DNA of 64,000 nt from a virus (taxonomy: Duplodnaviria > Caudoviricetes): positions 18,064 through 82,063 of the IMG/VR virus record IMGVR_UViG_2888055400_000002; one strand, written 5' to 3'. This document shows, in pieces, positions 205 to 59,991 of this stretch; the first letter of the stretch is position 1, and each line of letters opens with the position of its first letter. Position numbers and translations under genes: made by a program. Under the pieces are notes generated by a model. That model saw nothing but the letters and a program-made list of their open reading frames with translations. It was not told the DNA's origin and did no database searches.

Positions 205-714
205 TTACAGATGGCACATCACAAATGAAATTTCACCATAAGGAGAGAGACGCTCTGTATAAACATTTTCTCTTGTATTGCCATAAGCATTTTTAGTAAC
301 AACAGCCATGCCATAGGCACTTGCATTTTCATAAATATGAACATTACTTATGATTTTTGCACTATCAAAAACCCGCGCGTTATCATAAACATGCGCATTG
401 GCAAAAACCTTGGCAAAATCATAAACCTTGGCATTTCCATAAACAAAGCCACCCACAGAGGCATTGCCATAAACCCTAGCGTTTTCAAAAACACGACCAG
501 GTTTTAAAACAGTAGCATCATCACCAACCCAGCAATCACCATCATGAGAGAGGTTGCTTTCATCTTCAATAAAGCCACCAAGGTCACCAGCTTTAATATC
601 ACCAAAGTCTTTTAATGCTTTAATACGATAAAGTGTGTGATCACCCAATACACGGGTTTCATTTGTGATTTCATATTTTTTGGATACAATTTTGGATGCA
701 GTTATAGCGGTCAT
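205..714 (-). CDS. Left-handed beta-helix/hexapeptide-repeat phage-type protein
   Basis: KKYE..LYRIKALKDFGDIKAGDLGGFIE..NLSHDGDCWV head followed by V-Y-[GD]-N-A-x hexapeptides. Confidence 0.85.
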   Translation of the reverse strand: MTAITASKIVSKKYEITNETRVLGDHTLYRIKALKDFGDIKAGDLGGFIEDESNLSHDGDCWVGDDATVLKPGRVFENARVYGNASVGGFVYGNAKVYDFAKVFANAHVYDNARVFDSAKIISNVHIYENASAYGMAVVTKNAYGNTRENVYTERLSPYGEISFVMCHL

Positions 715-799: not shown

Positions 800-1591
800 T
801 TACGCAGCGTCTTTTATGGATTGATCATCACCACAAATATCATCACGAATTTTTATATGGCTATTAACCACGGCGTTGCCATAAATTTTTACATGATGAT
901 CGATATTTGATTTTCCATAAACCTTTGCATTATCATAAATTCTTGAGAAGCAACCAACGCGCGCCGAGCCAGAGACCTTTGCATTTCCATAGACGCTTGC
1001 ATAATCCTTAATCCATGCATTGCAAAAAACATGCGCATTGTCATAAACAGAAGCATAGACATGAATACGTGATTTACCATAGATTTGTGCATTGCCATAA
1101 ACATAGCCACAAACATGGGCATTATCATAGACCCTAGCATTGTCATAAATTTTTGCACCATCAGTAATAATAGCTTTATTGCAAACCACGGCATTACCAA
1201 AAACTTGCCCAGCGATTTTCGTATCATCATAGATTTTAGCATTCTCATAAATGCAAGCATCATTACCAAAAACCCATGCCTTTCCATTTATAGTAGCATT
1301 TCCATAAACCTTGGCTTGTCTAAAAACTTTAGATTCTTGATAAATTTTAGCATTCTCATAAAGCTTGGCATTCAAAAAAACCGCAGCATTGTCATAAACC
1401 CAGCAATTGCCATCATGAGAAAGGTTCTCTTCATTTTCAATAAAGCCCCCAAGGTCACCCGCCTTTACATCATCGAAATCCCTTAAAGCCCGAATGCGGT
1501 GCAAAGTAATTCCTTCAAAAGTGAAGTTTTCAGTTGTTAATTCATATTTTTTTGCAGAGATAACGGGGGTATTTTTTACTGTAGATTTCAT
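800..1591 (-). CDS. Left-handed beta-helix/hexapeptide-repeat phage-type protein (first gene of array A)
   Basis: Same conserved head and YDNA/YGNA repeats; SD AAAGGA at 1598-1603. Confidence 0.88.
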   Translation of the reverse strand: MKSTVKNTPVISAKKYELTTENFTFEGITLHRIRALRDFDDVKAGDLGGFIENEENLSHDGNCWVYDNAAVFLNAKLYENAKIYQESKVFRQAKVYGNATINGKAWVFGNDACIYENAKIYDDTKIAGQVFGNAVVCNKAIITDGAKIYDNARVYDNAHVCGYVYGNAQIYGKSRIHVYASVYDNAHVFCNAWIKDYASVYGNAKVSGSARVGCFSRIYDNAKVYGKSNIDHHVKIYGNAVVNSHIKIRDDICGDDQSIKDAA

Positions 1592-1638
1592 TTGAAATCC
1601 TTTCTAATCAAAAAGTTTTGAATTGACACCTATAAAGG

Positions 1639-1721
1639 CGCCGGGTGTTCAAAACACGGTGATTAGTCCGTTGCTTACACTTTTCCCATAAGGGTATTGT
1701 ATGGTGTAAGCACACCCGACA
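1639..1721 (-). ncRNA. C4-like antisense RNA, island A allele
   Basis: Folds by eye into a cloverleaf: closing stem TGTCGGGTGT/ACACCCGGCG, GCTTACAC/GTGTAAGC, CCC-TTAT-GGG, ACGG-ACTAATCA-CCGT. Segments CTAATCA and GTGTTTTGA are complementary to boxes at 1801-1819 and 1604-1622. Confidence 0.75.
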
Positions 1722-1832: not shown

Positions 1833-1861
1833 TATATACAAAAATACGTATTTATTGTCAA
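1833..1861 (-). promoter_or_regulatory. sigma70-type promoter of the leader/ncRNA/beta-helix operon
   Basis: TTGAC-N17-GTATAT on the minus strand, conserved at 55984-56011. Confidence 0.65.
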
Positions 1862-46550: not shown

Positions 46551-46641
46551 AAAAAACCTTGTCACATAAGGATGGACAAGGCTTTCTCTTATAAACCAAT
46601 AAGAATATAGCAAAATCCATCCTGTGACGCAACGTTATAGG

Positions 46642-47545
46642 ATGAAAAAAATGTATAATTCTATAAATGCTCGGGGCATTACAAATGCCTTGCGTGGTGT
46701 CTGGTATGGGGCTTATGGACTAGCCCATTGCCCTGCTCATGATGATAGGTCGCCTAGTTTAGCCATTTCTAATGGAAATGATGGGCGTCTCTTACTTCAT
46801 TGTTATGCTGGCTGCTCTTTTAAAGAGATCATACAAGCTCTCAAAAATATCGGGTTGATTAAAAAACAGGCATGTTTTGATCACAAAACTTCTTGTTACA
46901 ATCTCTCTTTCTCAAAACAGTTTTGTTGTGAAGATAACAAGGCAAAACAGAAAGTAGAGAGAGCACAAAAGATTTGGAAGCAAAGTCAACCGATTAAAGA
47001 GACCTTAGCAGAGCTTTATTTACGCAAGCGGGGCATCACTTGTAACTTGCCTCCCTAGTTTACGCTTTCATAGCAAATGTCCCCATCCCTCTGGAAAAAC
47101 CATCCCCGCGTTGGTTGCTCTTGTTGAGGGTGGTGGCTCCTTTGCAATCCATAGAACCTTTTTACAAGACAATGGCTGCAAAACAGAGCAGTTACCAGCA
47201 AAAGCCATGCTGGGCTCTGTTAAGGGCGGTGCTGTGCCTTTAAGCCAAGCCAATCACCAGCATCTGGTCATTTGTGAGGGAATTGAAACAGGTCTTTCTC
47301 TGCTGTCTGGTCTGTTATCAGAGCCTGTGACTTTATGGGCGTCCCTTTCAACCAGTGGCATGATGCATGTGAATTTATCCCAATGCCAAGCCCATCTCAC
47401 TGTAGCGATGGATGGCGATGATGCGGGTCGTAAAGCAGGTTTTGCCCTTGCTGCCCGTTCTTATAGCCAAGGCTTTAAAGTCTTTATCATGCAAGCTCCC
47501 GAAGGAGCGGATTACAATAATTTCTTATTAAATTATGAAAGGTAA
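46642..47545 (+). pseudogene. Zn-finger + Toprim primase split by a +1 frameshift
   Basis: AHCPAHDDRSPSL...HCYAGC in the first frame; ICEGIETGLS...AMDGDDAG Toprim in the second; the frames join at CCC-TAG 47053-47058. Confidence 0.8.
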
Positions 47546-49470: not shown

Positions 49471-49790
49471 TACCCCCCTTCATACCGTCAAGTGAAATGT
49501 ATCATAAAACTCTTCAAAATTGCATATTTGATCTCTTAAAAGCACATATTGGAGTTATTTCAATTTCCCATAAAATGAATAGCAAATTTCAGTAGTTTAC
49601 TTTTTATAGGCTGTTTATAAACTGCATCTTGATTGCATCTTGTTAAATTTTTTTGACGCATTTTGTAGCTTTTTGGGCGGTTTTCGCCCATTTCAGACTC
49701 GATATTTGTTCTAAATGTATTTAATAAACTCCATTTCGATTCTTTCGAAGTCAATTGATTAATGTCATAAGACTATGGAGTTTCTCTATA

Positions 49791-52700
49791 ATGCTTCAAT
49801 CCCTCAAGTCTGATAACAAACAATCTTCTTTACGCGCTCTTTTACAGTCTTATCGTCAACAGGCAAAATCAAATGCACTAAAAGGAAAAATCTTTGAAAG
49901 TTTTGTGACGAAATATCTTATGTATGACCCTCTTCATTATGGACGATATGAAAAGGTTCAAACCTATTATGAATGGGCTAAAGAGCGTGAGGGTTGGAAT
50001 AAAAATGATATCGGCATTGATTTGGTTGCGAAACTTCGTAATCAAGATGGGTATGTTGCCATTCAATGTAAGTTTTATGAAGCAGACCATCAGATCAGTA
50101 AAAAGGATATTGATAGCTTTATCGCCGCATCTGGAAAAGACATCTTTAAATATCGTCTTCTGGTTGATAGCACGGAAGTAGACTTAAGTGACAATGTGAA
50201 TGCCATGATTAAAGGACAAGCGATACCCGTTTATCGCATTGACCTTCGTCATATGGAAAACAGTCGTATAGACTGGCAAATCTTTGCAACAAAAAAAGAA
50301 GTCGTTCTTAAATCGACAAAAGAACCACGCCCCCATCAAGAAGAAGCAATCAAGAAAGTCTGTGAGGGTTTACAAGAAGCAGACCGTGGCAAGCTGATCA
50401 TGGCGTGTGGAACGGGCAAAACCTTTACCAGTCTTAAGATAGCAGAACAACTAGCCGGAAAAGGCAAGCGTGTTTTGTTTTTGGTGCCTTCTCTTGCCTT
50501 GGTATCACAAACAATACGTGAATGGACAGCGGATGCACAAATCCCATTACGCTCCTTTGCTGTTTGTTCGGATACGAAAGTAGGCAAGCGTCGTAAAAGC
50601 CAAGATGATATTGTTGGTATGGAAACATCAGATCTTGTGCTACCAGCAACAACGGATGCACAAGCACTTGCCAAAGAAGCTTGTGAGAACCTAGCAGATG
50701 CAATGACTGTGGTGTTTTCGACTTATCATTCCATCCAAGTGATTTCGGATGCACAAAAAGATCATGATTTACCAGAGTTTGATCTGATCATCTGTGATGA
50801 AGCTCATAGAACCACTGGGACATCATTAGGAAGTGACGACAATGAATCCGAATTTATCAAGGTTCACGATAACAGCATTATTCGGGGCAAAAAACGTCTG
50901 TACATGACGGCAACGCCGCGCATTTTTAGTGACACTGCCAAAAGGCGTGCGGATGAGATTAATGCCGTTCTAGCTTCTATGGATGATGAAACGCTTTATG
51001 GCAAACAACTGCATCATTATACCTTTTCGGAAGCTGTCGATAATGAACTTTTAACCCCTTACAAAATTGTGGTCTTAGGCATTGATGAAACCTATATTAC
51101 ACCAGCCATACAGGATATTATTGCCAATGAAAACCGTGAAATTGATTTAGATGATGCTGCAAAAATTATTGGCTGTTATAGAGCCCTGACCAAAATAGAT
51201 AAGGAAGCTACTGTTGATGAGAATGATACAGAACCCATGCATAGTGCTTTGGCTTTTTGCAAAGATATCAATACCTCTCAATATATTACAAAGCTCTTCA
51301 ATAAAATTATCAAATCTCATATCAATGATTTCCTTCAAACAGTTCCCTTTCTGAACTGTGAAGTAAGACATATTGACGGAAAGCAAAGTGTCAAAAAACG
51401 CAATGAAGAACTGGATTGGCTTAAAGAAGACACTGGTAAAAATGTTTGTCGGATTTTAAGCAATGTTCGGTGTCTTTCAGAAGGAATTGATGTTCCTGCT
51501 CTTGATGCGATCATGTTTTTACACCCGCGCAATAGCCAAGTGGATGTGATACAGGCGGTGGGGCGTGTGATGCGTCGTGCTCCAAATAAGAAAACAGGCT
51601 ATATCATTTTACCGATTATCATTCCCTCACACTTAGAAGCTAAAAAAGCTTTACGAAACAATAAGAGATATCGTGTTGTTTGGCAAGTTTTGCATGCTTT
51701 ACATTCCCATGATGAAAGGTTTGCTAGGACGATTAATCAAATGTCTTTAGGACAAGATAGCAGTCATACGATTGAGATTATAGAGATTAAGCGTGCCAAT
51801 GAATTACAAGAGCTCACCACAACTGTTGATGAGATCTCGATACAGGCAAAAGCAGAAAGTTCTGGACGTACCATAGGAACAGCAGAAAGCAAATCTCAAA
51901 CGTGGTATAAAGAGCAACAAGACTTATTCCGCCATTCTAATTTTTTTGATTTTGTCAAAGCCATTTTTCTGGATAGTTTTAAAATCACGGATTATTGGGG
52001 CATTTGGGCGAACAATGTTGCTGAGATTGCTCAAAACCATATCGTTCGTCTTCAAAACATGCTCTCTGATGAAACAAGTGAAGCCTATCATGCCTTTAAG
52101 AGCTTTTATCTCGAATTAAAGAGCAACATAAACAGTGATATCAAACAAGATGAAGCTGTTGAGATGCTTGCTCAACATCTTGTGACGCGCCCTGTGTTTG
52201 AAGCTTTGTTTGATGGCAATGAATTTGTCCAAAACAATACCATTTCACAAGCAATGGACAAAATACTCATTGAACTCGATAAAACGAATATCGAAGAAGA
52301 GTTGAAAGATCTTGATAAATTTTACAAAAGTATCACGTTCTGTACAGCAGGGATTACCGAACCCCATGCAAAACAGAACCTTATTATCAAGCTTTATGAA
52401 AGTTTTTTTACCAAGGCATTTAAAAAGACAACAGATAGGCTTGGCATTGTTTATACCCCTGTTGAGGTTGTGGATTTTATTATTCATTCCGTTGATGATA
52501 TTTTACGCAAAGAATTTGGCAAGAGTTTAGGATCACGTGGTGTTTCTATTCTTGACCCCTTTACGGGAACAGGTACCTTTATCACACGGCTTTTACACTC
52601 TAATCTCATAAAACCGGAAGATATGGAGTATAAGTTCCGTTATGACATCCATGCCAATGAGATTGTCTTGCTCGCTTATTACATAGCAGCGATTAACATT

Positions 52701-54755
52701 GAATCAACCTATCATGGTCTTATGAAAGGAGATTATATCCCCTTCAAACATATTGGATTAACGGATACGTTTCAGATGCTTGAAGAGAAAAACCTTCTGC
52801 AAGAATTATTTAAAGAAAACAGTGAGTATTTAGAACATCAGAAAAAGCTGAATATCGAAGTTATCTTTGGTAACCCTCCTTATTCGGTAGGACAAAAAAG
52901 TGAAAACGACAATGCAAAAAATATTTCTTATCCGCTCTTAGATAAACGTATCAGTGAGACTTATACTGCCCAATCAAAAGCAATCAACATGCGCAATCTT
53001 TATGATAGCTATATTCGTGCCATCCGTTGGGCAAGTGACCGTATAAAAGACCGTGGTATTATTGGTTTTGTCACAAATGCGGGTTTTGTAGATACTAAAT
53101 CTATGGATGGCTTACGCAAGTGTTTAGTTGAAGAATTTAGCAGCCTTTATATTTTCCATTTACGGGGTAATCAACGAACCTCTGGAGAGCTTTCTCGAAA
53201 AGAAGGTGGAAAGATTTTTGGTTCCGGATCACGAGCCCCTATTGCTATCTCTATTCTTGTAAAAAATCCAGAATCCAAACAGCGTGGTAAAATATATTTT
53301 CATGATTTTGAAGATTATCTCACAAGAGAAGAAAAGCTTAAGTCAATTAAGGACTTTGGTAGTATTGATGGCATTACACGGAGTAATCGCGGTTGGAAAA
53401 TCATTACACCAGACAAACATGGTGATTGGATTAATCAACGTGATGAAAGTTTTAAAACATTCCTAGCCATAGGTAATAAAAAAGGACACGATAAAAAGCT
53501 CTTTGAGACTTTTTCATGTGGTATTTCAACCAATCGCGATGCTTGGGCATATAACTCAAGCCGTGAATCTTTAGCAAAAAACATGAAGAATATGATTGCT
53601 TTCTATAATAGTGAAGTAGAACGTTTTAATGATGCCTATCTACACTCTGACCGTAGAACATGCGTAAATGCTGTAAACAACTTCATAAATTCGGATGAGA
53701 AGAAGATAAGTTGGAGTCGTGCACTTAAACAAGAATTGGTAAAAGGAAAAGTTTTTGAATTTGAAGATACATGCCTTATTCAAAGCTTGTATCGTCCTTT
53801 TACACAACAGTGGCTCTATTATAATCGTACCTTTAATGAAATGGTTTACCAAATGCCTCGTATCTTCCCGATAGAACAAACAATTGAGAATAGAGTAATA
53901 CAAGTTACAGGGACAGGAGCAATGGCTGGCTTTTCTGTCTTGATGAGTAATGCTTTGCCTAATCTTGATTCAATAGAGAAAAGCCAATGTTTTCCAAGGT
54001 ATTTCTATGAAGATGTTGCGCCTTCAAAAAGTAAAAATGAAAAACAATCCCATTTATTTACAAATTCTACAGAAGAAACCAAAGCTGCTGGTTTACAACG
54101 CCGTGATGCCATCACTGATGAAGGATTAGCACATTTTAAAGCTGCTTATCCGAATGAAACCATAACTAAAGATGATATTTTCTATTATGTTTACGGGATC
54201 TTGCATTCAAAAGATTATCGTGCTCGTTATGCTGATAATCTCTCTAAAGAACTCCCTCGCATCCCTTGCGTAAAGAGTGCTGAAGATTTTTGGATGTTTG
54301 TTACAGCAGGGCGTGAATTAGGCAATTTGCACATCAATTATGAAAGCGTAGAATCTTATCCTGTGACCTTCAAAAAAGGTGACCCTAAACTTACAGATAT
54401 ATCTAATCCTGAGAAATTCTATTATGTTACAGAAATGAAATTTGCTGGGAATAGTAAGGAAAAAGATAAAACCACTGTTTTTTATAACAATAATATCACA
54501 ATAACAGATATCCCTCTTGAAGCTTATGAGTATATCGTAAATGGCAAGCCCGCTCTTGAATGGGTTATGGGGCGTCAATGTGTAAAGACCGATAAAAAGA
54601 GTGGCATTGTTAATGATGCCAATTGCTATGCGGTTGAAACCATTGGCAACCCTGCTTATCCATTGGAATTGTTTCAAAGGGTTATTACGGTAAGTTTAGA
54701 AACAATGAAGATTGTTAAGAACCTACCAAATTTGGAATTAAGAGAAACTGAATAG
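49791..54755 (+). CDS. Type ISP single-polypeptide restriction-modification enzyme (LlaGI/LlaBIII-like)
   Basis: Mrr-like DIGIDLV..AIQCKFY, SF2 helicase (GTGKT, DEAH, MTATP, QAVGRVMR), MTase (LDPFTGTG, GNPPY), C-terminal TRD (LYRPF, YVYGILHS..YR..YA..L.KELPRIP). Confidence 0.92.
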   Translation: MLQSLKSDNKQSSLRALLQSYRQQAKSNALKGKIFESFVTKYLMYDPLHYGRYEKVQTYYEWAKEREGWNKNDIGIDLVAKLRNQDGYVAIQCKFYEADHQISKKDIDSFIAASGKDIFKYRLLVDSTEVDLSDNVNAMIKGQAIPVYRIDLRHMENSRIDWQIFATKKEVVLKSTKEPRPHQEEAIKKVCEGLQEADRGKLIMACGTGKTFTSLKIAEQLAGKGKRVLFLVPSLALVSQTIREWTADAQIPLRSFAVCSDTKVGKRRKSQDDIVGMETSDLVLPATTDAQALAKEACENLADAMTVVFSTYHSIQVISDAQKDHDLPEFDLIICDEAHRTTGTSLGSDDNESEFIKVHDNSIIRGKKRLYMTATPRIFSDTAKRRADEINAVLASMDDETLYGKQLHHYTFSEAVDNELLTPYKIVVLGIDETYITPAIQDIIANENREIDLDDAAKIIGCYRALTKIDKEATVDENDTEPMHSALAFCKDINTSQYITKLFNKIIKSHINDFLQTVPFLNCEVRHIDGKQSVKKRNEELDWLKEDTGKNVCRILSNVRCLSEGIDVPALDAIMFLHPRNSQVDVIQAVGRVMRRAPNKKTGYIILPIIIPSHLEAKKALRNNKRYRVVWQVLHALHSHDERFARTINQMSLGQDSSHTIEIIEIKRANELQELTTTVDEISIQAKAESSGRTIGTAESKSQTWYKEQQDLFRHSNFFDFVKAIFLDSFKITDYWGIWANNVAEIAQNHIVRLQNMLSDETSEAYHAFKSFYLELKSNINSDIKQDEAVEMLAQHLVTRPVFEALFDGNEFVQNNTISQAMDKILIELDKTNIEEELKDLDKFYKSITFCTAGITEPHAKQNLIIKLYESFFTKAFKKTTDRLGIVYTPVEVVDFIIHSVDDILRKEFGKSLGSRGVSILDPFTGTGTFITRLLHSNLIKPEDMEYKFRYDIHANEIVLLAYYIAAINIESTYHGLMKGDYIPFKHIGLTDTFQMLEEKNLLQELFKENSEYLEHQKKLNIEVIFGNPPYSVGQKSENDNAKNISYPLLDKRISETYTAQSKAINMRNLYDSYIRAIRWASDRIKDRGIIGFVTNAGFVDTKSMDGLRKCLVEEFSSLYIFHLRGNQRTSGELSRKEGGKIFGSGSRAPIAISILVKNPESKQRGKIYFHDFEDYLTREEKLKSIKDFGSIDGITRSNRGWKIITPDKHGDWINQRDESFKTFLAIGNKKGHDKKLFETFSCGISTNRDAWAYNSSRESLAKNMKNMIAFYNSEVERFNDAYLHSDRRTCVNAVNNFINSDEKKISWSRALKQELVKGKVFEFEDTCLIQSLYRPFTQQWLYYNRTFNEMVYQMPRIFPIEQTIENRVIQVTGTGAMAGFSVLMSNALPNLDSIEKSQCFPRYFYEDVAPSKSKNEKQSHLFTNSTEETKAAGLQRRDAITDEGLAHFKAAYPNETITKDDIFYYVYGILHSKDYRARYADNLSKELPRIPCVKSAEDFWMFVTAGRELGNLHINYESVESYPVTFKKGDPKLTDISNPEKFYYVTEMKFAGNSKEKDKTTVFYNNNITITDIPLEAYEYIVNGKPALEWVMGRQCVKTDKKSGIVNDANCYAVETIGNPAYPLELFQRVITVSLETMKIVKNLPNLELRETE

Positions 54756-55983: not shown

Positions 55984-56011
55984 TTGACAATAAATACGTA
56001 TTTTGGTATAT
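55984..56011 (+). promoter_or_regulatory. sigma70-type promoter
   Basis: TTGAC-N17-GTATAT, matching the alphaproteobacterial CTTGAC-N17-CTATAT pattern; conserved in island A. Confidence 0.65.
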
Positions 56012-56025
56012 AAATAATCAAGTGA

Positions 56026-56046
56026 TTGAAAACACTAAACATCAAG
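56026..56046 (+). promoter_or_regulatory. Upstream antisense target (a1/b1-like)
   Basis: TTGAAAACAC and CATCAAG are complementary to 56188-56197 and 56179-56185. Confidence 0.75.
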
Positions 56047-56123
56047 CGGATAGATTACGAAACGATCTTTCCCATTTATAAAAACTGACTGTCTTTTATG
56101 CTGTTGTTAGTATATTAAGATTC

Positions 56124-56207
56124 TGTCGGGTGTGCTACACCATACAATACCCTTCTAGGGAAAAGTGTAAGCAACGGACTTGATGCCGTGTTTTCAAACA
56201 CCCGGCG
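56124..56207 (+). ncRNA. C4-like antisense RNA, island B allele
   Basis: Cloverleaf: TGTCGGGTGT/ACACCCGGCG, GCTACAC/GTGTAAGC, CCCT-TCT-AGGG, ACGG-ACTTGATG-CCGT, unpaired GTTTTCAA. Confidence 0.75.
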
Positions 56208-56231
56208 CTCTTATTTTTATAAGGGTATCAA

Positions 56232-56255
56232 TTGAAAACATTAAACATCAAGGAG
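56232..56255 (+). promoter_or_regulatory. Downstream antisense target (a2/b2-like) overlapping the RBS
   Basis: TTGAAAACA..CATCAAG with SD AGGAG at 56251-56255 and ATG at 56264. Confidence 0.75.
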
Positions 56256-56263
56256 ACACTAGC

Positions 56264-56992
56264 ATGGTTGCTACTGTTAATAAGAAAACATCATCCAAAA
56301 AATATGAGTTCACATATGATATGCAATGCGTCAATGGTCATTTATTGTACCGTATACGTGCTTTAAAAGACTTTGGTGATGTAAAAAAAGGTGATCTCGG
56401 TGGCTATATCGAAAAGCAAAGCAACCTATCTCATAAAGGGGATTGCTGGGTTTATGATCATGCTCGTGTTTTCCAAAATGCTCGTGTCTTTGGGAATGCA
56501 AAAGTAAAGGGTTATTTTGTTGATGTATATGGCAATGCAAAAATTTATGGAAATGCGATTTTCGAAGGTCGTACAATAAATGATTATTGTGAGGTTTATG
56601 GCAATGCGCATGTTAGCAACGCCGTGGTTATTGAAGGCAATGCAAAAATTTATGATAACGCCTCTGTAACGAATTATGCTCATATTTCTGATGATGCTGT
56701 GATTTGTGATGATGCCCATGTCGGGGGCAATGCAAAAATAAGCGGCGCTGCTCATATTTGTGATCATTCTCAAGTTTGTGATGATGCCGTGGTTTGTGGG
56801 GCTCTTATCTCAGGCAATTCTTATGTACATAGTGCCGCCTCTTTAACTTCTGATGATCATATTTGGGACGAGGCATATCCCGAATTTGGTAGTGAAGATG
56901 ATTACTATCGTCACGAATATTATGATGATTATGGTTATGATGATGATTACGAATATGATTGCAATTCTGAAGATGCCAATCAAGCTGCGTAA
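56264..56992 (+). CDS. Beta-helix/hexapeptide-repeat protein with an acidic Tyr-rich tail
   Basis: Conserved head plus hexapeptides; tail EDDYYRHEYYDDYGYDDDYEYD. Confidence 0.88.
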   Translation: MVATVNKKTSSKKYEFTYDMQCVNGHLLYRIRALKDFGDVKKGDLGGYIEKQSNLSHKGDCWVYDHARVFQNARVFGNAKVKGYFVDVYGNAKIYGNAIFEGRTINDYCEVYGNAHVSNAVVIEGNAKIYDNASVTNYAHISDDAVICDDAHVGGNAKISGAAHICDHSQVCDDAVVCGALISGNSYVHSAASLTSDDHIWDEAYPEFGSEDDYYRHEYYDDYGYDDDYEYDCNSEDANQAA

Positions 56993-57021: not shown

Positions 57022-57073
57022 CTCTCTAACTTTCATTTAAATTTAATCATTATTTAGATTGGGAATAAAACCT

Positions 57074-57745
57074 ATGTCCACTACAACTGTATCTAAAAAA
57101 TATGAAATCACAAATGAAACGCATGTCGTTGGTAATCGTACCCTTTATCGCATTAAAGCATTAAGAGACTTTTCTGATGTAAAAGCTGGTCAATTGGGTG
57201 GCTTTATTGAGAATGAAAATAATCTCTCTCATGATGGTAACTGCTGGGTTTATGATGATGCGTGGGTTGCTGACAAGGGCTTCGTGTCTGATAATGCGCA
57301 AATTTTCAATTATGCTAGCGTTTTCGATAATGCAACGGTTTGTGGTAATGCAAAGGTTTTTGATTGTGCAAAAATTTATGACAATGCAAAAATTGCTGAT
57401 AACGCTAGGGTTTTTGGAAAAACTTTTGTTTACAATCATGCCTGTGTTTTGAATAATTCTGAAGTCTCTGACAGGGCTGTTATAAAAGGCAATGCAAAAA
57501 TTTATGACAATGCTTTGCTAACTGGCTATGCACAAGCTTATGGGAATGCAAAGATTTTTGGCAATGCACAAATTTGGTTTTTTGCTGTGGTTTGTGGTGA
57601 TGTTTGTATTTATGACAATGCAAAAATTACAGGTGGTACATACATTTGCGATAAAGTGAGTGTTTTTGGTAATTCATATATAGATACAAAAAAATTGAAT
57701 GGTCATATCAAAATTTGTGATCAAACCATAAAAGACGTTGCGTAA
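57074..57745 (+). CDS. Beta-helix/hexapeptide-repeat protein
   Basis: Conserved head plus hexapeptides. Confidence 0.88.
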   Translation: MSTTTVSKKYEITNETHVVGNRTLYRIKALRDFSDVKAGQLGGFIENENNLSHDGNCWVYDDAWVADKGFVSDNAQIFNYASVFDNATVCGNAKVFDCAKIYDNAKIADNARVFGKTFVYNHACVLNNSEVSDRAVIKGNAKIYDNALLTGYAQAYGNAKIFGNAQIWFFAVVCGDVCIYDNAKITGGTYICDKVSVFGNSYIDTKKLNGHIKICDQTIKDVA

Positions 57746-57755
57746 ATAACACCGC

Positions 57756-57772
57756 GGGCGTGGGGGGCGCCC
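57756..57772 (+). repeat. GC-rich intergenic hairpin
   Basis: GGGCGT-GGGGG-GCGCCC. Confidence 0.8.
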
Positions 57773-59202: not shown

Positions 59203-59991
59203 ATGTCTAAAAAATACCAATTAACAAATGAAATGAAACAATTGAAAGATAAAATGACACAAAAAATTACCAAGCTTTATCGCATTCGTGCTTTAAGAGA
59301 TTTTGATGATGTCAAGGCTGGTGACCTAGGGGGCTTTATTGAAAAGGAAATCAACCTCTCTCATGATGGCAATTGTTGGGTTTATGATGATGCATGGGTT
59401 TATGGACATGCTCGTGTTTTTGACAATGCAAAAATACGTCATCAGTCTCAAGTGTGTGGTCAAGTCTATGGTAATGCACAAATTTGTGATCAGGCGTTCA
59501 TTTCTCAATATGCACAAATATATGACAATGCATTTGTTTATAACAATGCCTCTGTATCTGGGTATGTTTATGGCAAGGCTCGTGTCTATGGCAATAGTCG
59601 CGTTTCAATTGAAGCCCATGTTTATGGCAATGCGCATCTTTCTCATAATAGTTGTGTTTTTGATTATGCAAGGCTCTATGGCAATGCGAGGGTTTCAGGT
59701 TCTGCCCGTCTTTTTAATTATGCGCATGTTTATGGTCATGCTGTTATTAACAACCGTGCAAAAATCTATGGCAAGGTTTATGGCTATGCAAAAGTGAGTG
59801 GCTGTGCTGAAATTTATGGCTCTGTTTATGAAAAAGCTCAGGTTTCTTACACTGTTAAGGTCTGGGGTCGTGTCCATGGGAGGGCACTTCTCAATAGACA
59901 AAGTAAGGTAAAGGTGGTTCCCCAAAATAAGGAAGTTTACAAAAGTGATATTCTTATGGAGCTTATTGAGAAAATTGAGACAGAAGAATAA
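59203..59991 (+). CDS. Beta-helix/hexapeptide-repeat protein (last gene of array B)
   Basis: Conserved head plus hexapeptides. Confidence 0.88.
   Translation: MSKKYQLTNEMKQLKDKMTQKITKLYRIRALRDFDDVKAGDLGGFIEKEINLSHDGNCWVYDDAWVYGHARVFDNAKIRHQSQVCGQVYGNAQICDQAFISQYAQIYDNAFVYNNASVSGYVYGKARVYGNSRVSIEAHVYGNAHLSHNSCVFDYARLYGNARVSGSARLFNYAHVYGHAVINNRAKIYGKVYGYAKVSGCAEIYGSVYEKAQVSYTVKVWGRVHGRALLNRQSKVKVVPQNKEVYKSDILMELIEKIETEE

Follow-up and report, generated by a model that had tools for sequence, protein, structure and literature searches.

Two described systems in which an antisense RNA lies between two copies of its target come closest to the locus analyzed here. The CI RNA has this target-RNA-target layout in P4, a satellite that encodes an integrase and a primase of the P4 type, and it terminates transcription of its own operon prematurely. 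RNase P releases the c4 RNA of phage P1 from a precursor. The mechanism of c4 and the heteroimmunity of P1 and P7 are described in the available text of PMC12197685. A further RNA, sRNA-Xcc1 of Xanthomonas campestris, is the type member of the Rfam family RF02221, to which Rfam assigns no clan; according to the available text of PMC2996969, it was verified by Northern blotting as an RNA of 88 nt with mapped ends and is treated as a trans-acting, virulence-linked regulator with predicted distant targets. It has also been placed upstream of symE in an integron cassette (bioRxiv 10.1101/2025.06.18.660453, available part). We found no description of flanking c4-like targets in the available parts of the sRNA-Xcc1 literature. 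Here, we describe two loci in which an RNA that matches this family precedes genes for proteins related to YdcK of Escherichia and Salmonella.

Results

The window, i.e., the whole stretch of DNA that was analyzed, is 64,000 nt (64 kb) long. On its two strands, the bipartite target TTGAAAAC-N6-CATCAAG had two matches (56026-56046 and 56232-56252), against an expectation of 0.00 from 100 shuffles, and these sites bracket an 82-nt three-helix RNA at 56125-56206 (copy A). When the sequence was reread, the promoter, the target sites, and the RNA with its displayed CUUGAUG loop were each found at the position given in the preliminary description of the locus. The same description had spoken of an 84-nt cloverleaf; a folded RNA is present, with a core of 82 nt and a three-way junction instead of four arms. 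The regulatory features of copy A are as follows.

55984..56012, plus strand: promoter P1, with TTGACA at 55984-55989 and GTATAT/TATATA 16 to 17 nt further 3'; identical in copy B
56026..56033, plus strand: upstream target a1 (TTGAAAAC), the complement of the RNA 3' junction, within the loop of a small AGUG/CACU hairpin
56040..56046, plus strand: upstream target b1 (CATCAAG), the complement of the hairpin 2 loop
56048..56072, plus strand: leader hairpin 3' of b1, from folding; kept in copy B
56111..56116, plus strand: possible -10 box (TATATT) of a putative promoter P2, placed for a start at the RNA 5' end
56125..56206, plus strand: c4-like antisense RNA of the RF02221 type, from Infernal and folding, 89% identical to copy B; address made up of the b' loop CUUGAUG (56179-56185) and the a' junction GUUUUCAA (56190-56197)
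56208..56225, plus strand: small hairpin immediately 3' of the RNA, without a U tract
56232..56239, plus strand: downstream target a2 (TTGAAAAC), from the match to the bipartite site
56246..56252, plus strand: downstream target b2 (CATCAAG), which runs into the AAGGAG Shine-Dalgarno sequence at 56250-56255

The end of b2 is 11 nt from the ATG at 56264. The heptamer CATCAAG by itself has 21 occurrences in the window and is not repeated ahead of genes 2 to 5 of the operon; the a2/b2 pair lies on gene 1 only. P1 was missing from the list of a strict sigma-70 scan because its -10 element, in the TATATA register, has no T at position 6; a TTGAC[AT] box stands at the P1 position in 49 of 50 related loci among the matches listed. 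The leader hairpin is preserved in copy B through a compensatory change from A-U to G-C, and a hairpin also follows the RNA in relatives, with varying sequence. No canonical terminator was found 3' of the RNA in copy A. A conserved ATCAAGT (56017-56023), common to the leaders of both copies, is also complementary to loop A, and some cross-talk at the upstream site is thus possible. A search of phage DNA with the 600-nt region returned no match.

The predicted fold of copy A (56125-56206) consisted of a closing stem and two hairpins; the hairpin 2 loop contained CUUGAUG, and GUUUUCAA was left unpaired at the 3' junction. The energy of this fold was -27.7 kcal/mol (z, -2.46), and 2 of 200 shuffled sequences were as stable. 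Copy B folded at -32.3 kcal/mol (z, -4.29). The closing stem, the AUACAAUACCC...GGG-core hairpin, and the second hairpin were present in the minimum free energy folds of both copies, and 38 of 53 relatives (among the matches listed) gave the three-helix fold when folded singly. MAFFT with RNAalifold on the 53 relatives yielded only 7 consensus pairs because the MAFFT alignment is not structure aware; the structural support is that of the Rfam model and the single-sequence folds. The Rfam check that had been proposed, against the C4, c4-2, and c4-a1b1 models, was negative: none of the three gave an Infernal match at an E value of 10 or less between 55900 and 56400, while P1, the positive control, scored 68.8 bits with C4 and 51 bits with c4-a1b1. 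RF02221 (sRNA-Xcc1) matched copy A over its full length (56125-56214) with 45.9 bits (E, 4.8e-7; gathering score, 53) and copy B with 54.6 bits, above the gathering score. The RNA of this locus thus probably belongs to the RF02221 family, although copy A scores below the family's gathering score.

The layout had been likened to that of P1 c4, and the P1 record bears this out: its annotation follows this order, with a1, b1, c4, a2, b2, and icd. The offset between a1 and b1 is 14 nt in both P1 and copy A, and the distance from b2 to the start codon is 10 nt in P1 compared with 11 nt here. In the Rfam C4 alignment, c4 likewise has three helices; its second hairpin carries b' in the loop, and its 3' junction carries a'. 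The variation of the address resembles that behind P1/P7 heteroimmunity. The RNA described here differs from the c4 RNAs of P1 and P7 (RF01695 and RF03163, clan CL00128), whose models it does not match with Infernal, in having a larger hairpin 1 with an invariant AUACAAUACCC motif, probably a promoter of its own, and five YdcK-like genes as cargo in place of icd-ant. With sRNA-Xcc1 it shares the covariance model (copy A under the gathering score), a length of ~85 to 88 nt, and a location in mobile DNA. The comparison of copy A with P4 CI was one of layout; P4 CI acts by premature termination, and the downstream target of copy A lies over a Shine-Dalgarno sequence. In the available text on the Brt RNAs of Bartonella (PMC5387305), no link to the RNA of this locus was found.

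A second copy of the module lies on the minus strand of the same provirus, with the following features.

1856..1861, minus strand: -35 box TTGACA of promoter P1
1801..1819, minus strand: upstream targets a1 (TCAAAAC, 1819-1813) and b1 (TGATTAG, 1807-1801)
1640..1720, minus strand: copy B RNA, with b' loop CUAAUCA (1666-1660) and a' junction GUUUUGA (1655-1649)
1604..1621, minus strand: downstream targets a2 (TCAAAAC, 1621-1615) and b2 (TGATTAG, 1610-1604), adjoining an AAAGGA Shine-Dalgarno sequence
800..1591, minus strand: YdcK-like gene 1 (263 aa); PF18836, E 4e-20; PDB 2f9c (YdcK), E 6e-20
205..714, minus strand: YdcK-like gene 2

Three more paralogs of this operon lie to the left of the window, which makes five in total. 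Copy B (RNA at 1720-1640) was 89% identical to copy A over ~550 nt and carried a different address. Loop, junction, and both targets are where the differences between the copies are concentrated, and the changes compensate one another: the pairs are CTTGATG/CATCAAG and GTTTTCAA/TTGAAAAC in copy A, and CTAATCA/TGATTAG and GTTTTGA/TCAAAAC in copy B. Duplex energies at a2/b2 ranged from -6.6 to -8.7 kcal/mol for cognate pairs compared with -2.2 to -4.2 kcal/mol for noncognate pairs, and all cognate duplexes, upstream as well as downstream, fell within the former range. By the same energies, the two copies are orthogonal at b2. Given their differing addresses, each copy should control its own operon only, as in P1/P7 heteroimmunity.

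Antisense recognition, as claimed in the preliminary description, is well supported, in that RNA and targets covary strongly across 50 distinct Bartonella-type loci among the matches listed. These relatives were gathered by exact matches to one conserved motif, and all counts of relatives given here describe a sample among the matches listed. In that sample, the 7 nt of a locus's own loop had their exact complement at b1 in 47 of the 50 loci and at b2 in 49, while a1 complemented the own junction in 46 and a2 in 44; all four targets were cognate in 39. Noncognate pairings of RNA and target matched in only 0.2 to 1.3% of cases (n = 2,166 to 2,396). At least 29 loops, at least 9 junctions, and at least 43 combinations occur in the 50 loci, and loop and junction variants assort independently (among the matches listed). 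Each address segment is short (7 to 8 nt), and the geometry relative to the RNA is constant, with a1 at ~-100, b1 at ~-86, a2 at ~+17, b2 at ~+32, and the start codon at ~+48. For members outside the Bartonella type, a test for segments of at least 7 nt replaced the loop-only fold test, which was uninformative because the folds cut the loops to 4 to 6 nt. By this test, 30 of 37 such members among the matches listed had a complement in their own leader (noncognate, 12.6%) and 28 of 37 had one in their own downstream region (noncognate, 9.3%).

A -10 hexamer with at least five of six matches ended 4 to 9 nt ahead of the RNA in 28 of the 50 related loci among the matches listed; many of these hexamers were a perfect TATAAT, and full -35/-10 pairs were present in many loci. 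The position of this box next to the RNA 5' end suggests a primary transcript rather than a processed RNA, and transcription of the RNA probably starts from a separate promoter, P2. Since a near-consensus promoter stands at the RNA 5' end in many relatives, RNase P processing from a long precursor is not implied. A tRNA-like NCCA 3' of the closing stem was considered as a sign of such processing and was dropped because it is inconsistent across the family: it is absent in copy A, and among the Bartonella-type members in the matches listed NCCA was found in none, NCC only in 10, and neither in 11.

The operon downstream of copy A consists of the following genes.

56264..56992, plus strand: YdcK-like gene 1; 242 aa, pI 4.7, acidic Tyr/Asp-rich tail; PF18836, E 9e-11; PHROG 5070, function unknown
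57059..57745, plus strand: YdcK-like gene 2; listed open reading frame, PF18836
57829..58545, plus strand: YdcK-like gene 3; PF18836
58629..59126, plus strand: YdcK-like gene 4, short (165 aa); PF18836, below the cutoff
59203..59991, plus strand: YdcK-like gene 5; PF18836

All five proteins match PF18836 (YdcK beta-solenoid repeat), four of them over the cutoff and that of gene 4 with 26.4 bits against a cutoff of 30. Like YdcK (PDB 2f9c and 2pig; PF18836; PHROG 5070 and 7964), they combine the conserved N-terminal domain with left-handed beta-helix repeats; unlike it, they are shorter and are encoded in tandem paralog sets on mobile elements. The four proteins scanned scored 79 to 123 bits with the NCBIfam model for YdcK (NF040481, YdcK_fam), compared with an equivalog cutoff of 350, and by these scores the cargo proteins would be relatives of YdcK and not equivalogs. 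No function for the YdcK-like proteins emerged from PADLOC, NCBIfam, PHROGs, or a protein atlas, and none was found for any member of the YdcK family in the literature or in PHROG. The hairpin at 57756-57772 is terminator-like, and cotranscription and operon-wide control are for that reason assumptions.

The PF18836 matches agree with the earlier claim that the cargo consists of beta-helix paralogs and not of an antirepressor, the class of gene that relatives of the RNA mostly gate. Among the first downstream open reading frames of 54 family members in the matches listed, 12 were Rha, 7 Bro-N, 4 AntA, 4 YdcK-like, 2 ORF6N, 2 of the SymE family, 1 P22_AR_N, and 1 KilA-N. The Rha, Bro-N, AntA, ORF6N, P22_AR_N, and KilA-N genes are classic c4 cargo. 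Across the RNA family, the gated gene is usually an antirepressor (Rha, Bro-N, or AntA); in plasmids and islands of Bartonella, a YdcK-like beta-solenoid gene often takes its place. The RNA preceded a YdcK gene in all six Bartonella plasmid loci examined, with a different address in each. Related modules on plasmids adjoin other toxin-antitoxin pairs; the upstream HTH regulator and the other neighbors found on the plasmids have no homologs in the 64-kb window. The YdcK/PHROG 5070 family is represented in 96 phage records, and YdcK-like homologs also occur in phages, both lytic and temperate, where they are part of ordinary early operons. The island with copy A carries an integrase, Toprim/DUF7146 fragments, and DUF3987, and the switch is at the end distant from the primase genes. 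Both five-gene sets are on mobile islands of a Bartonella-like prophage. The combination had been called undescribed, and a literature search found no paper on it; nor was a c4-like switch on YdcK-like genes reported in the article texts that this search covered; c4 relatives and their neighbors may be listed in Additional file 1 of PMC2864571.

Discussion

We consider it likely that a c4-type antisense-RNA immunity switch gates the YdcK-like operon, and the RNA most likely blocks translation of the YdcK-like genes. In the proposed mechanism, a stable RNA of ~82 nt, built from the closing stem and two hairpins, would show two addresses, one in the b' loop and one in the a' 3' junction. An mRNA started at promoter P1 and covering both the RNA gene and the YdcK operon would have the complementary pair twice, as a1/b1 in the leader and as a2/b2 just 5' of gene 1, where b2 lies over the Shine-Dalgarno sequence. 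Accumulated RNA would pair with a2 and b2 and block ribosome binding at gene 1, and the lost translation of gene 1 would silence the five-gene operon, with genes 2 to 5 presumably controlled via polarity. In a cell without the RNA, e.g., one in which the element has just arrived, the operon would be read until the RNA builds up. We infer the making of a discrete RNA, the block of translation by pairing, and the burst upon entry.

Another mechanism would need no trans-acting RNA at all: the leader domain could pair intramolecularly, either with a2/b2, which hides the Shine-Dalgarno sequence, or with a1/b1, which frees it. The RNA and its targets do lie on one strand within 240 nt, a2/b2 is just ~17 to 32 nt beyond the fold, a canonical terminator is lacking 3' of the RNA, and the duplicated target a1/b1 would be a natural competitor. 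Against such a purely cis-acting device stand the -10 box placed for a start at the RNA in 28 of 50 loci (among the matches listed; many with full -35/-10 pairs), the discrete 88-nt RNA of the Xanthomonas homolog in the available text, and P1 c4, which has the same layout and, in the text available, acts in trans and defines heteroimmunity. Additionally, the at least 43 address combinations are a prediction of trans specificity. We regard control in cis only as quite improbable, and the cis and trans modes are compatible with each other. It is very unlikely that the RNA mainly regulates host genes in trans, the role that the Xanthomonas and Xylella literature gives to sRNA-Xcc1, and that the flanking complementarity is incidental. 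The available texts on sRNA-Xcc1 predict many chromosomal or plant targets and report control of HrpG/HrpX (PMC2996969, PMC12189769), but the flanking sites follow the address at fixed distances in 44 to 49 of 50 loci (among the matches listed) compared with at most 1.3% for noncognate pairs, and so rapidly changing an address is incompatible with a conserved target in the host.

The same mechanism might also serve another purpose, with the RNA as the antitoxin of an addiction or abortive-infection system and the YdcK-like proteins as growth inhibitors. Both icd, which follows c4 in P1, and kil, which follows CI in P4, are toxic genes, and this speaks for the possibility, as do the SymE-family toxin genes that follow relatives of the RNA in 2 of 54 loci (among the matches listed) and the plasmid modules beside other toxin-antitoxin pairs. 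Relatives of the RNA also precede SymE in Xanthomonas integron cassettes, according to the available part of bioRxiv 10.1101/2025.06.18.660453. The YdcK-like proteins, however, had no PADLOC match and are not known to be toxic, homologs belong to ordinary early operons in both temperate and lytic phages, and the stability expected of a compact, tRNA-like RNA fits postsegregational killing poorly; we judge an addiction function to be unlikely. Chance similarity in AT-rich DNA could be suspected from the short segments and the 21 occurrences of CATCAAG alone in the window; with two bipartite sites against 0.00 expected and four-way covariation in 50 loci, it is refuted, and we give it hardly any weight.

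Under the antisense switch proposed above, the YdcK-like proteins of Bartonella mobile elements would be subject to a control that usually falls to antirepressors, and their synthesis is therefore probably confined to times when the element has newly entered a cell or is derepressed. The preliminary description had suggested that they may be early effectors with an anti-defense, anti-helper, or antirepressor-like action. As to their role, anti-defense or establishment is a guess that we hold at well below even confidence; an antirepressor-like role seems rather doubtful, and a toxic or addiction cargo more doubtful still. Our broader proposal is speculative: YdcK-type paralog sets may be entry-phase effectors (anti-defense or establishment) in the RNA-gated slot of the antirepressors, and the two-part address code (at least 29 loops by at least 9 junctions in Bartonella alone) may let related plasmids, islands, and prophages share a cell unsilenced. 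As a corollary of this proposal, the whole RF02221 family would be c4-like immunity RNAs that act on their own flanks and not trans-acting virulence sRNAs. If RF02221 is self-targeting, searches for targets in Xanthomonas and Xylella move to the RNA's own flanks and symE.

The c4-type switch itself is known, and what appears from the literature search to be new here is its combination with YdcK-like cargo. This provides a first regulatory handle on the YdcK/PHROG 5070 proteins, a family that is widespread in phages. The at least 43 orthogonal address pairs form a natural set that can serve as a test bed for the specificity of 7- to 8-nt kissing contacts.

Organization and predicted fold of the locus

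The preliminary description had placed a promoter, a bipartite target, a folded RNA and a second bipartite target at 55984-56266, and all of these elements were read where claimed. The features are as follows.

55984-55989 (+): -35 box TTGACA of the leader promoter (promoter P1), with GTATAT/TATATA 16 to 17 nt downstream
56026-56046 (+): upstream bipartite site TTGAAAAC-N6-CATCAAG
Between the two bipartite sites (+): GC-richer folded segment
56111-56116 (+): candidate -10 box TATATT of promoter P2, the proposed promoter of the RNA itself (copy A)
56232-56252 (+): downstream bipartite site TTGAAAAC-N6-CATCAAG, running into AAGGAG, with ATG at 56264

The motif TTGAAAAC-N6-CATCAAG matched only twice on both strands of the 64-kb window (0.00 expected from 100 shuffles); the CATCAAG heptamer by itself was frequent, with 21 matches. 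The RNA at 56125-56206 (copy A) was predicted to form two hairpins bounded by a closing stem (-27.7 kcal/mol; z, -2.46), with CUUGAUG as the loop of hairpin 2 (segment b') and GUUUUCAA as an unpaired 3' junction (segment a'). The loop and the unpaired junction seen earlier were thereby retained, but the cloverleaf gave way to a predicted three-way junction. Each bipartite site offers one target for each segment (a1 and b1 upstream, a2 and b2 downstream); a small conserved AGUG/CACU hairpin was predicted to hold a1 in its loop, and the stretch with a2 and b2 was predicted to be unstructured, these small folds being individually not significant.

A second locus (copy B, 1720-1640, minus strand) repeated the full layout before another YdcK-like gene and served as an internal control. 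The two copies were 89% identical over approximately 550 nt, and their differences fell into four clusters and were compensatory: copy A combines the loop CTTGATG and the junction GTTTTCAA with the targets TTGAAAAC..CATCAAG, twice, and copy B combines the loop CTAATCA and the junction GTTTTGA with the targets TCAAAAC..TGATTAG, also twice. Duplex energies were -6.6 to -8.7 kcal/mol for cognate pairs and -2.2 to -4.2 kcal/mol for non-cognate pairs at the downstream site. Just past the start region of promoter P1, both leaders carry a conserved ATCAAGT (56017-56023, and 1829-1823 on the minus strand) that is complementary to the copy A loop only, and therefore RNA A could make contact upstream in both leaders but not with operon B at its ribosome-binding site. 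The AT-rich, non-coding stretch of approximately 250 nt upstream of promoter P1 (55735-55983, and 2100-1862 on the minus strand) was nearly identical in the two copies and approximately 74% identical to that of the Bartonella plasmid pBT01; it showed no conserved ORF, and the search for the plasmids' HTH regulator yielded no homolog.

RNA family and comparison with phage P1 c4

A check of the C4-type reading against Rfam had also been proposed, and copy A gave no match to C4, c4-2 or c4-a1b1 at an E value of 10 or below (Infernal, Rfam 15). Instead, the sRNA-Xcc1 model (RF02221) matched copy A in full at 45.9 bits (E, 4.8e-7), below the gathering score of 53, and copy B matched the same model above the threshold in a whole-window scan (1720-1632, minus strand; 54.6 bits), these two being the only RF02221 matches in the 82-kb provirus record that contains the window. 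As judged by Rfam models, the family is RF02221 and not C4. RF02221 belongs to no Rfam clan, and P1 c4 and its a1b1 leader are in CL00128.

The RF02221 type member came from small-RNA cloning and gave a single Northern band of approximately 100 nt, with mapped ends 88 nt apart (PMC2996969). In the literature searched, sRNA-Xcc1 was handled as a trans-acting sRNA. An APSE phage paper placed it upstream of an ORF6N gene; a 2025 preprint placed it upstream of symE and suggested "a divergent regulatory mechanism" (bioRxiv 10.1101/2025.06.18.660453); and a Xylella paper reported C4, isrK and sRNA-Xcc1 matches side by side without linking them (PMC12189769).

The order of elements resembles that of phage P1, whose record annotates promoters, a1, b1, c4 (77 nt), a2, b2 and icd in succession. 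In both, a1 and b1 are offset by 14 nt, and the gap from b2 to the start codon is 10 nt in phage P1 and 11 nt in the window. The window RNA also shares the topology of the Rfam P1 c4 alignment, with a closing stem, hairpin 1, hairpin 2 carrying b' in its loop and a single-stranded 3' junction carrying a'. According to a review, c4 pairs around the ribosome-binding site and so keeps ant from being translated; c4 also underlies P1/P7 heteroimmunity (PMC12197685). On this order, topology and described action, the window element would work like c4, but the negative Infernal result places it outside RF01695.

The window-type RNA probably differs from c4 in having its own promoter. Among 50 distinct Bartonella-type loci, a -10 hexamer (at least a 5/6 match) ended 4 to 9 nt 5' of the RNA in 28, and antirepressor-linked loci had a TTGACT-N18-TATAAT pair positioned for a start at the first G; thus, the RNA may be a primary transcript of promoter P2. 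The TTGAC[AT] box of promoter P1, which would produce the leader carrying a1 and b1, was present in 49 of the 50. A tRNA-like NCCA 3' of the closing stem was inconsistent through the family and absent from copy A. We infer expression, RNA processing, translational block and polarity as steps of the switch. Among the operon A genes, targets occurred before gene 1 only, and a terminator-like hairpin followed gene 2 (57756-57772).

Covariation of the RNA with its targets

A DNA search found the module in seven Bartonella plasmids only and in no phage records. A scan for the conserved motif of hairpin 1 in species-representative genomes gave at least 120 loci; the closing-stem complement was present in 98 of the 120 listed, and 59 were retained as clear family members, coming from Bartonella, Pasteurellaceae, Neisseria, Arsenophonus, Desulfovibrio and others. 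The 50 Bartonella-type loci, drawn from the listed motif-scan loci, the plasmids and IMG/VR, were parsed by regular expression. The locus's own loop had its exact 7-nt complement at b1 in 47 loci and at b2 in 49; for the complement of the own junction the counts were 46 at a1 and 44 at a2, and 39 loci had all four. In the non-cognate control, in which each RNA was compared with the flanks of differently addressed loci, the corresponding values were 0.2 to 1.3% (n = 2166 to 2396).

These loci used at least 29 loops and at least 9 junctions in at least 43 combinations, with loop and junction assorting independently; one locus (L134) joins the copy A loop to the copy B junction, and its targets track both. 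Spacing relative to the RNA was constant (a1, ~-100; b1, ~-86; a2, ~+17; b2, ~+32; start codon, ~+48). For the 37 non-Bartonella-type members listed, a complementary run of 7 nt or more was present in the own leader in 30 (non-cognate, 12.6%) and in the own downstream region in 28 (non-cognate, 9.3%). With this covariation, a c4-like mechanism at the locus is well supported on comparative grounds.

Four Bartonella genome loci contained tandem or clustered modules, each with its own address (L083, L094, L097 and L099); L094 had modules at 2303 and 2873, and L099 had three on the minus strand, at 1371, 2049 and 2741. They resemble the five clustered sRNA-Xcc1 homologs described for Xylella (PMC12189769).

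Genes downstream of the RNA

All five genes following copy A and both in-window genes following copy B matched PF18836 (YdcK beta-solenoid repeat), and three further paralogs just left of the window bring operon B to five genes, as in operon A. The best of the proteins matched the solved YdcK structure 2f9c with an E value of 6e-20. The proteins fall into PHROG 5070 and 7964, both function-unknown groups, score below the NCBIfam YdcK cut-off and had no match in PADLOC. Gene 1 encodes an acidic protein (pI 4.7) and the remaining proteins range from neutral to basic, so the set is not uniformly DNA-mimic-like. Our literature search found no publication that links YdcK-like proteins with antisense RNA; YdcK-like cargo is new for a c4-like switch.

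By Pfam, the first downstream ORFs of 54 listed family members included Rha (12), Bro-N (7), AntA (4), YdcK (4), ANT (3), ORF6N (2), SymE (2), P22_AR_N (1) and KilA-N (1). The first ORF was YdcK-like in 26 of the 50 Bartonella-type loci: both window loci, all six plasmid loci, 11 of 14 IMG/VR loci (a biased sample, fetched with a YdcK query) and 7 of 28 listed motif-scan loci, the unbiased subset. The other 24 had AntA-like or Rha-like antirepressors or small unknown ORFs, and in two loci (L039 and L156) a Rha-type gene in first place was followed by a YdcK-like one. A single regulatory slot is thus common to YdcK-like genes and antirepressors.

YdcK-like genes were present in 79 IMG/VR loci, and the RNA was upstream in 15 of them, all 15 being of the Bartonella type. 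Forty of the other 64 were scanned with Rfam and had no C4-clan, isrK or sRNA-Xcc1 match within 1.5 kb. On the sequences compared, the link between the RNA and YdcK is lineage-specific.

In the two SymE loci (L022 and L062), an RF02221-type RNA lay directly upstream of a SymE-family toxin ORF, an arrangement matching the Xanthomonas integron cassette described in the preprint (bioRxiv 10.1101/2025.06.18.660453). The flanking targets suggest that the RNA is the antitoxin-like partner there.

Genomic context

Unrelated phages have YdcK-like genes in their early regions: in a Mannheimia phage they follow recT/exo, in Liberibacter SC1 they stand between a repressor and a Bro-N gene, and in Xanthomonas CP1 they adjoin the gene for RNA polymerase. 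In the window, copies A and B each stand at the end of an island that carries an Arm-type integrase, Toprim/DUF7146 fragments, DUF3987 and a Type ISP restriction-modification gene. In island B this last gene is whole (49755-54755), in island A it is broken into four ORFs (8011-3039, minus strand), and the adjoining RNA-YdcK module is intact in both; a Type ISP gene adjoins the module in pBT01 as well. Operon A is followed by genes for an Mtd-like fibre fragment and for a phage lysozyme. Island B appears to have a split primase-like gene (46624-47545): DUF7146 starts at the end of a 144-amino-acid ORF and resumes at the beginning of the following ORF, the one with the Toprim domain.

In the plasmids pBHa (L128), pTLV-1 (L131) and pOE11-1 (L132), the module lies approximately 1.5 to 2 kb from divergent traK/traJ, where oriT is expected, and so it may be within the leading region that enters the recipient first. 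In four large IMG/VR viral contigs (L162, L168, L180 and L186), YdcK-like genes adjoin tRNA arrays, accompanied in L162 by a tmRNA and a HEARO RNA and in L186 by a type II hammerhead.
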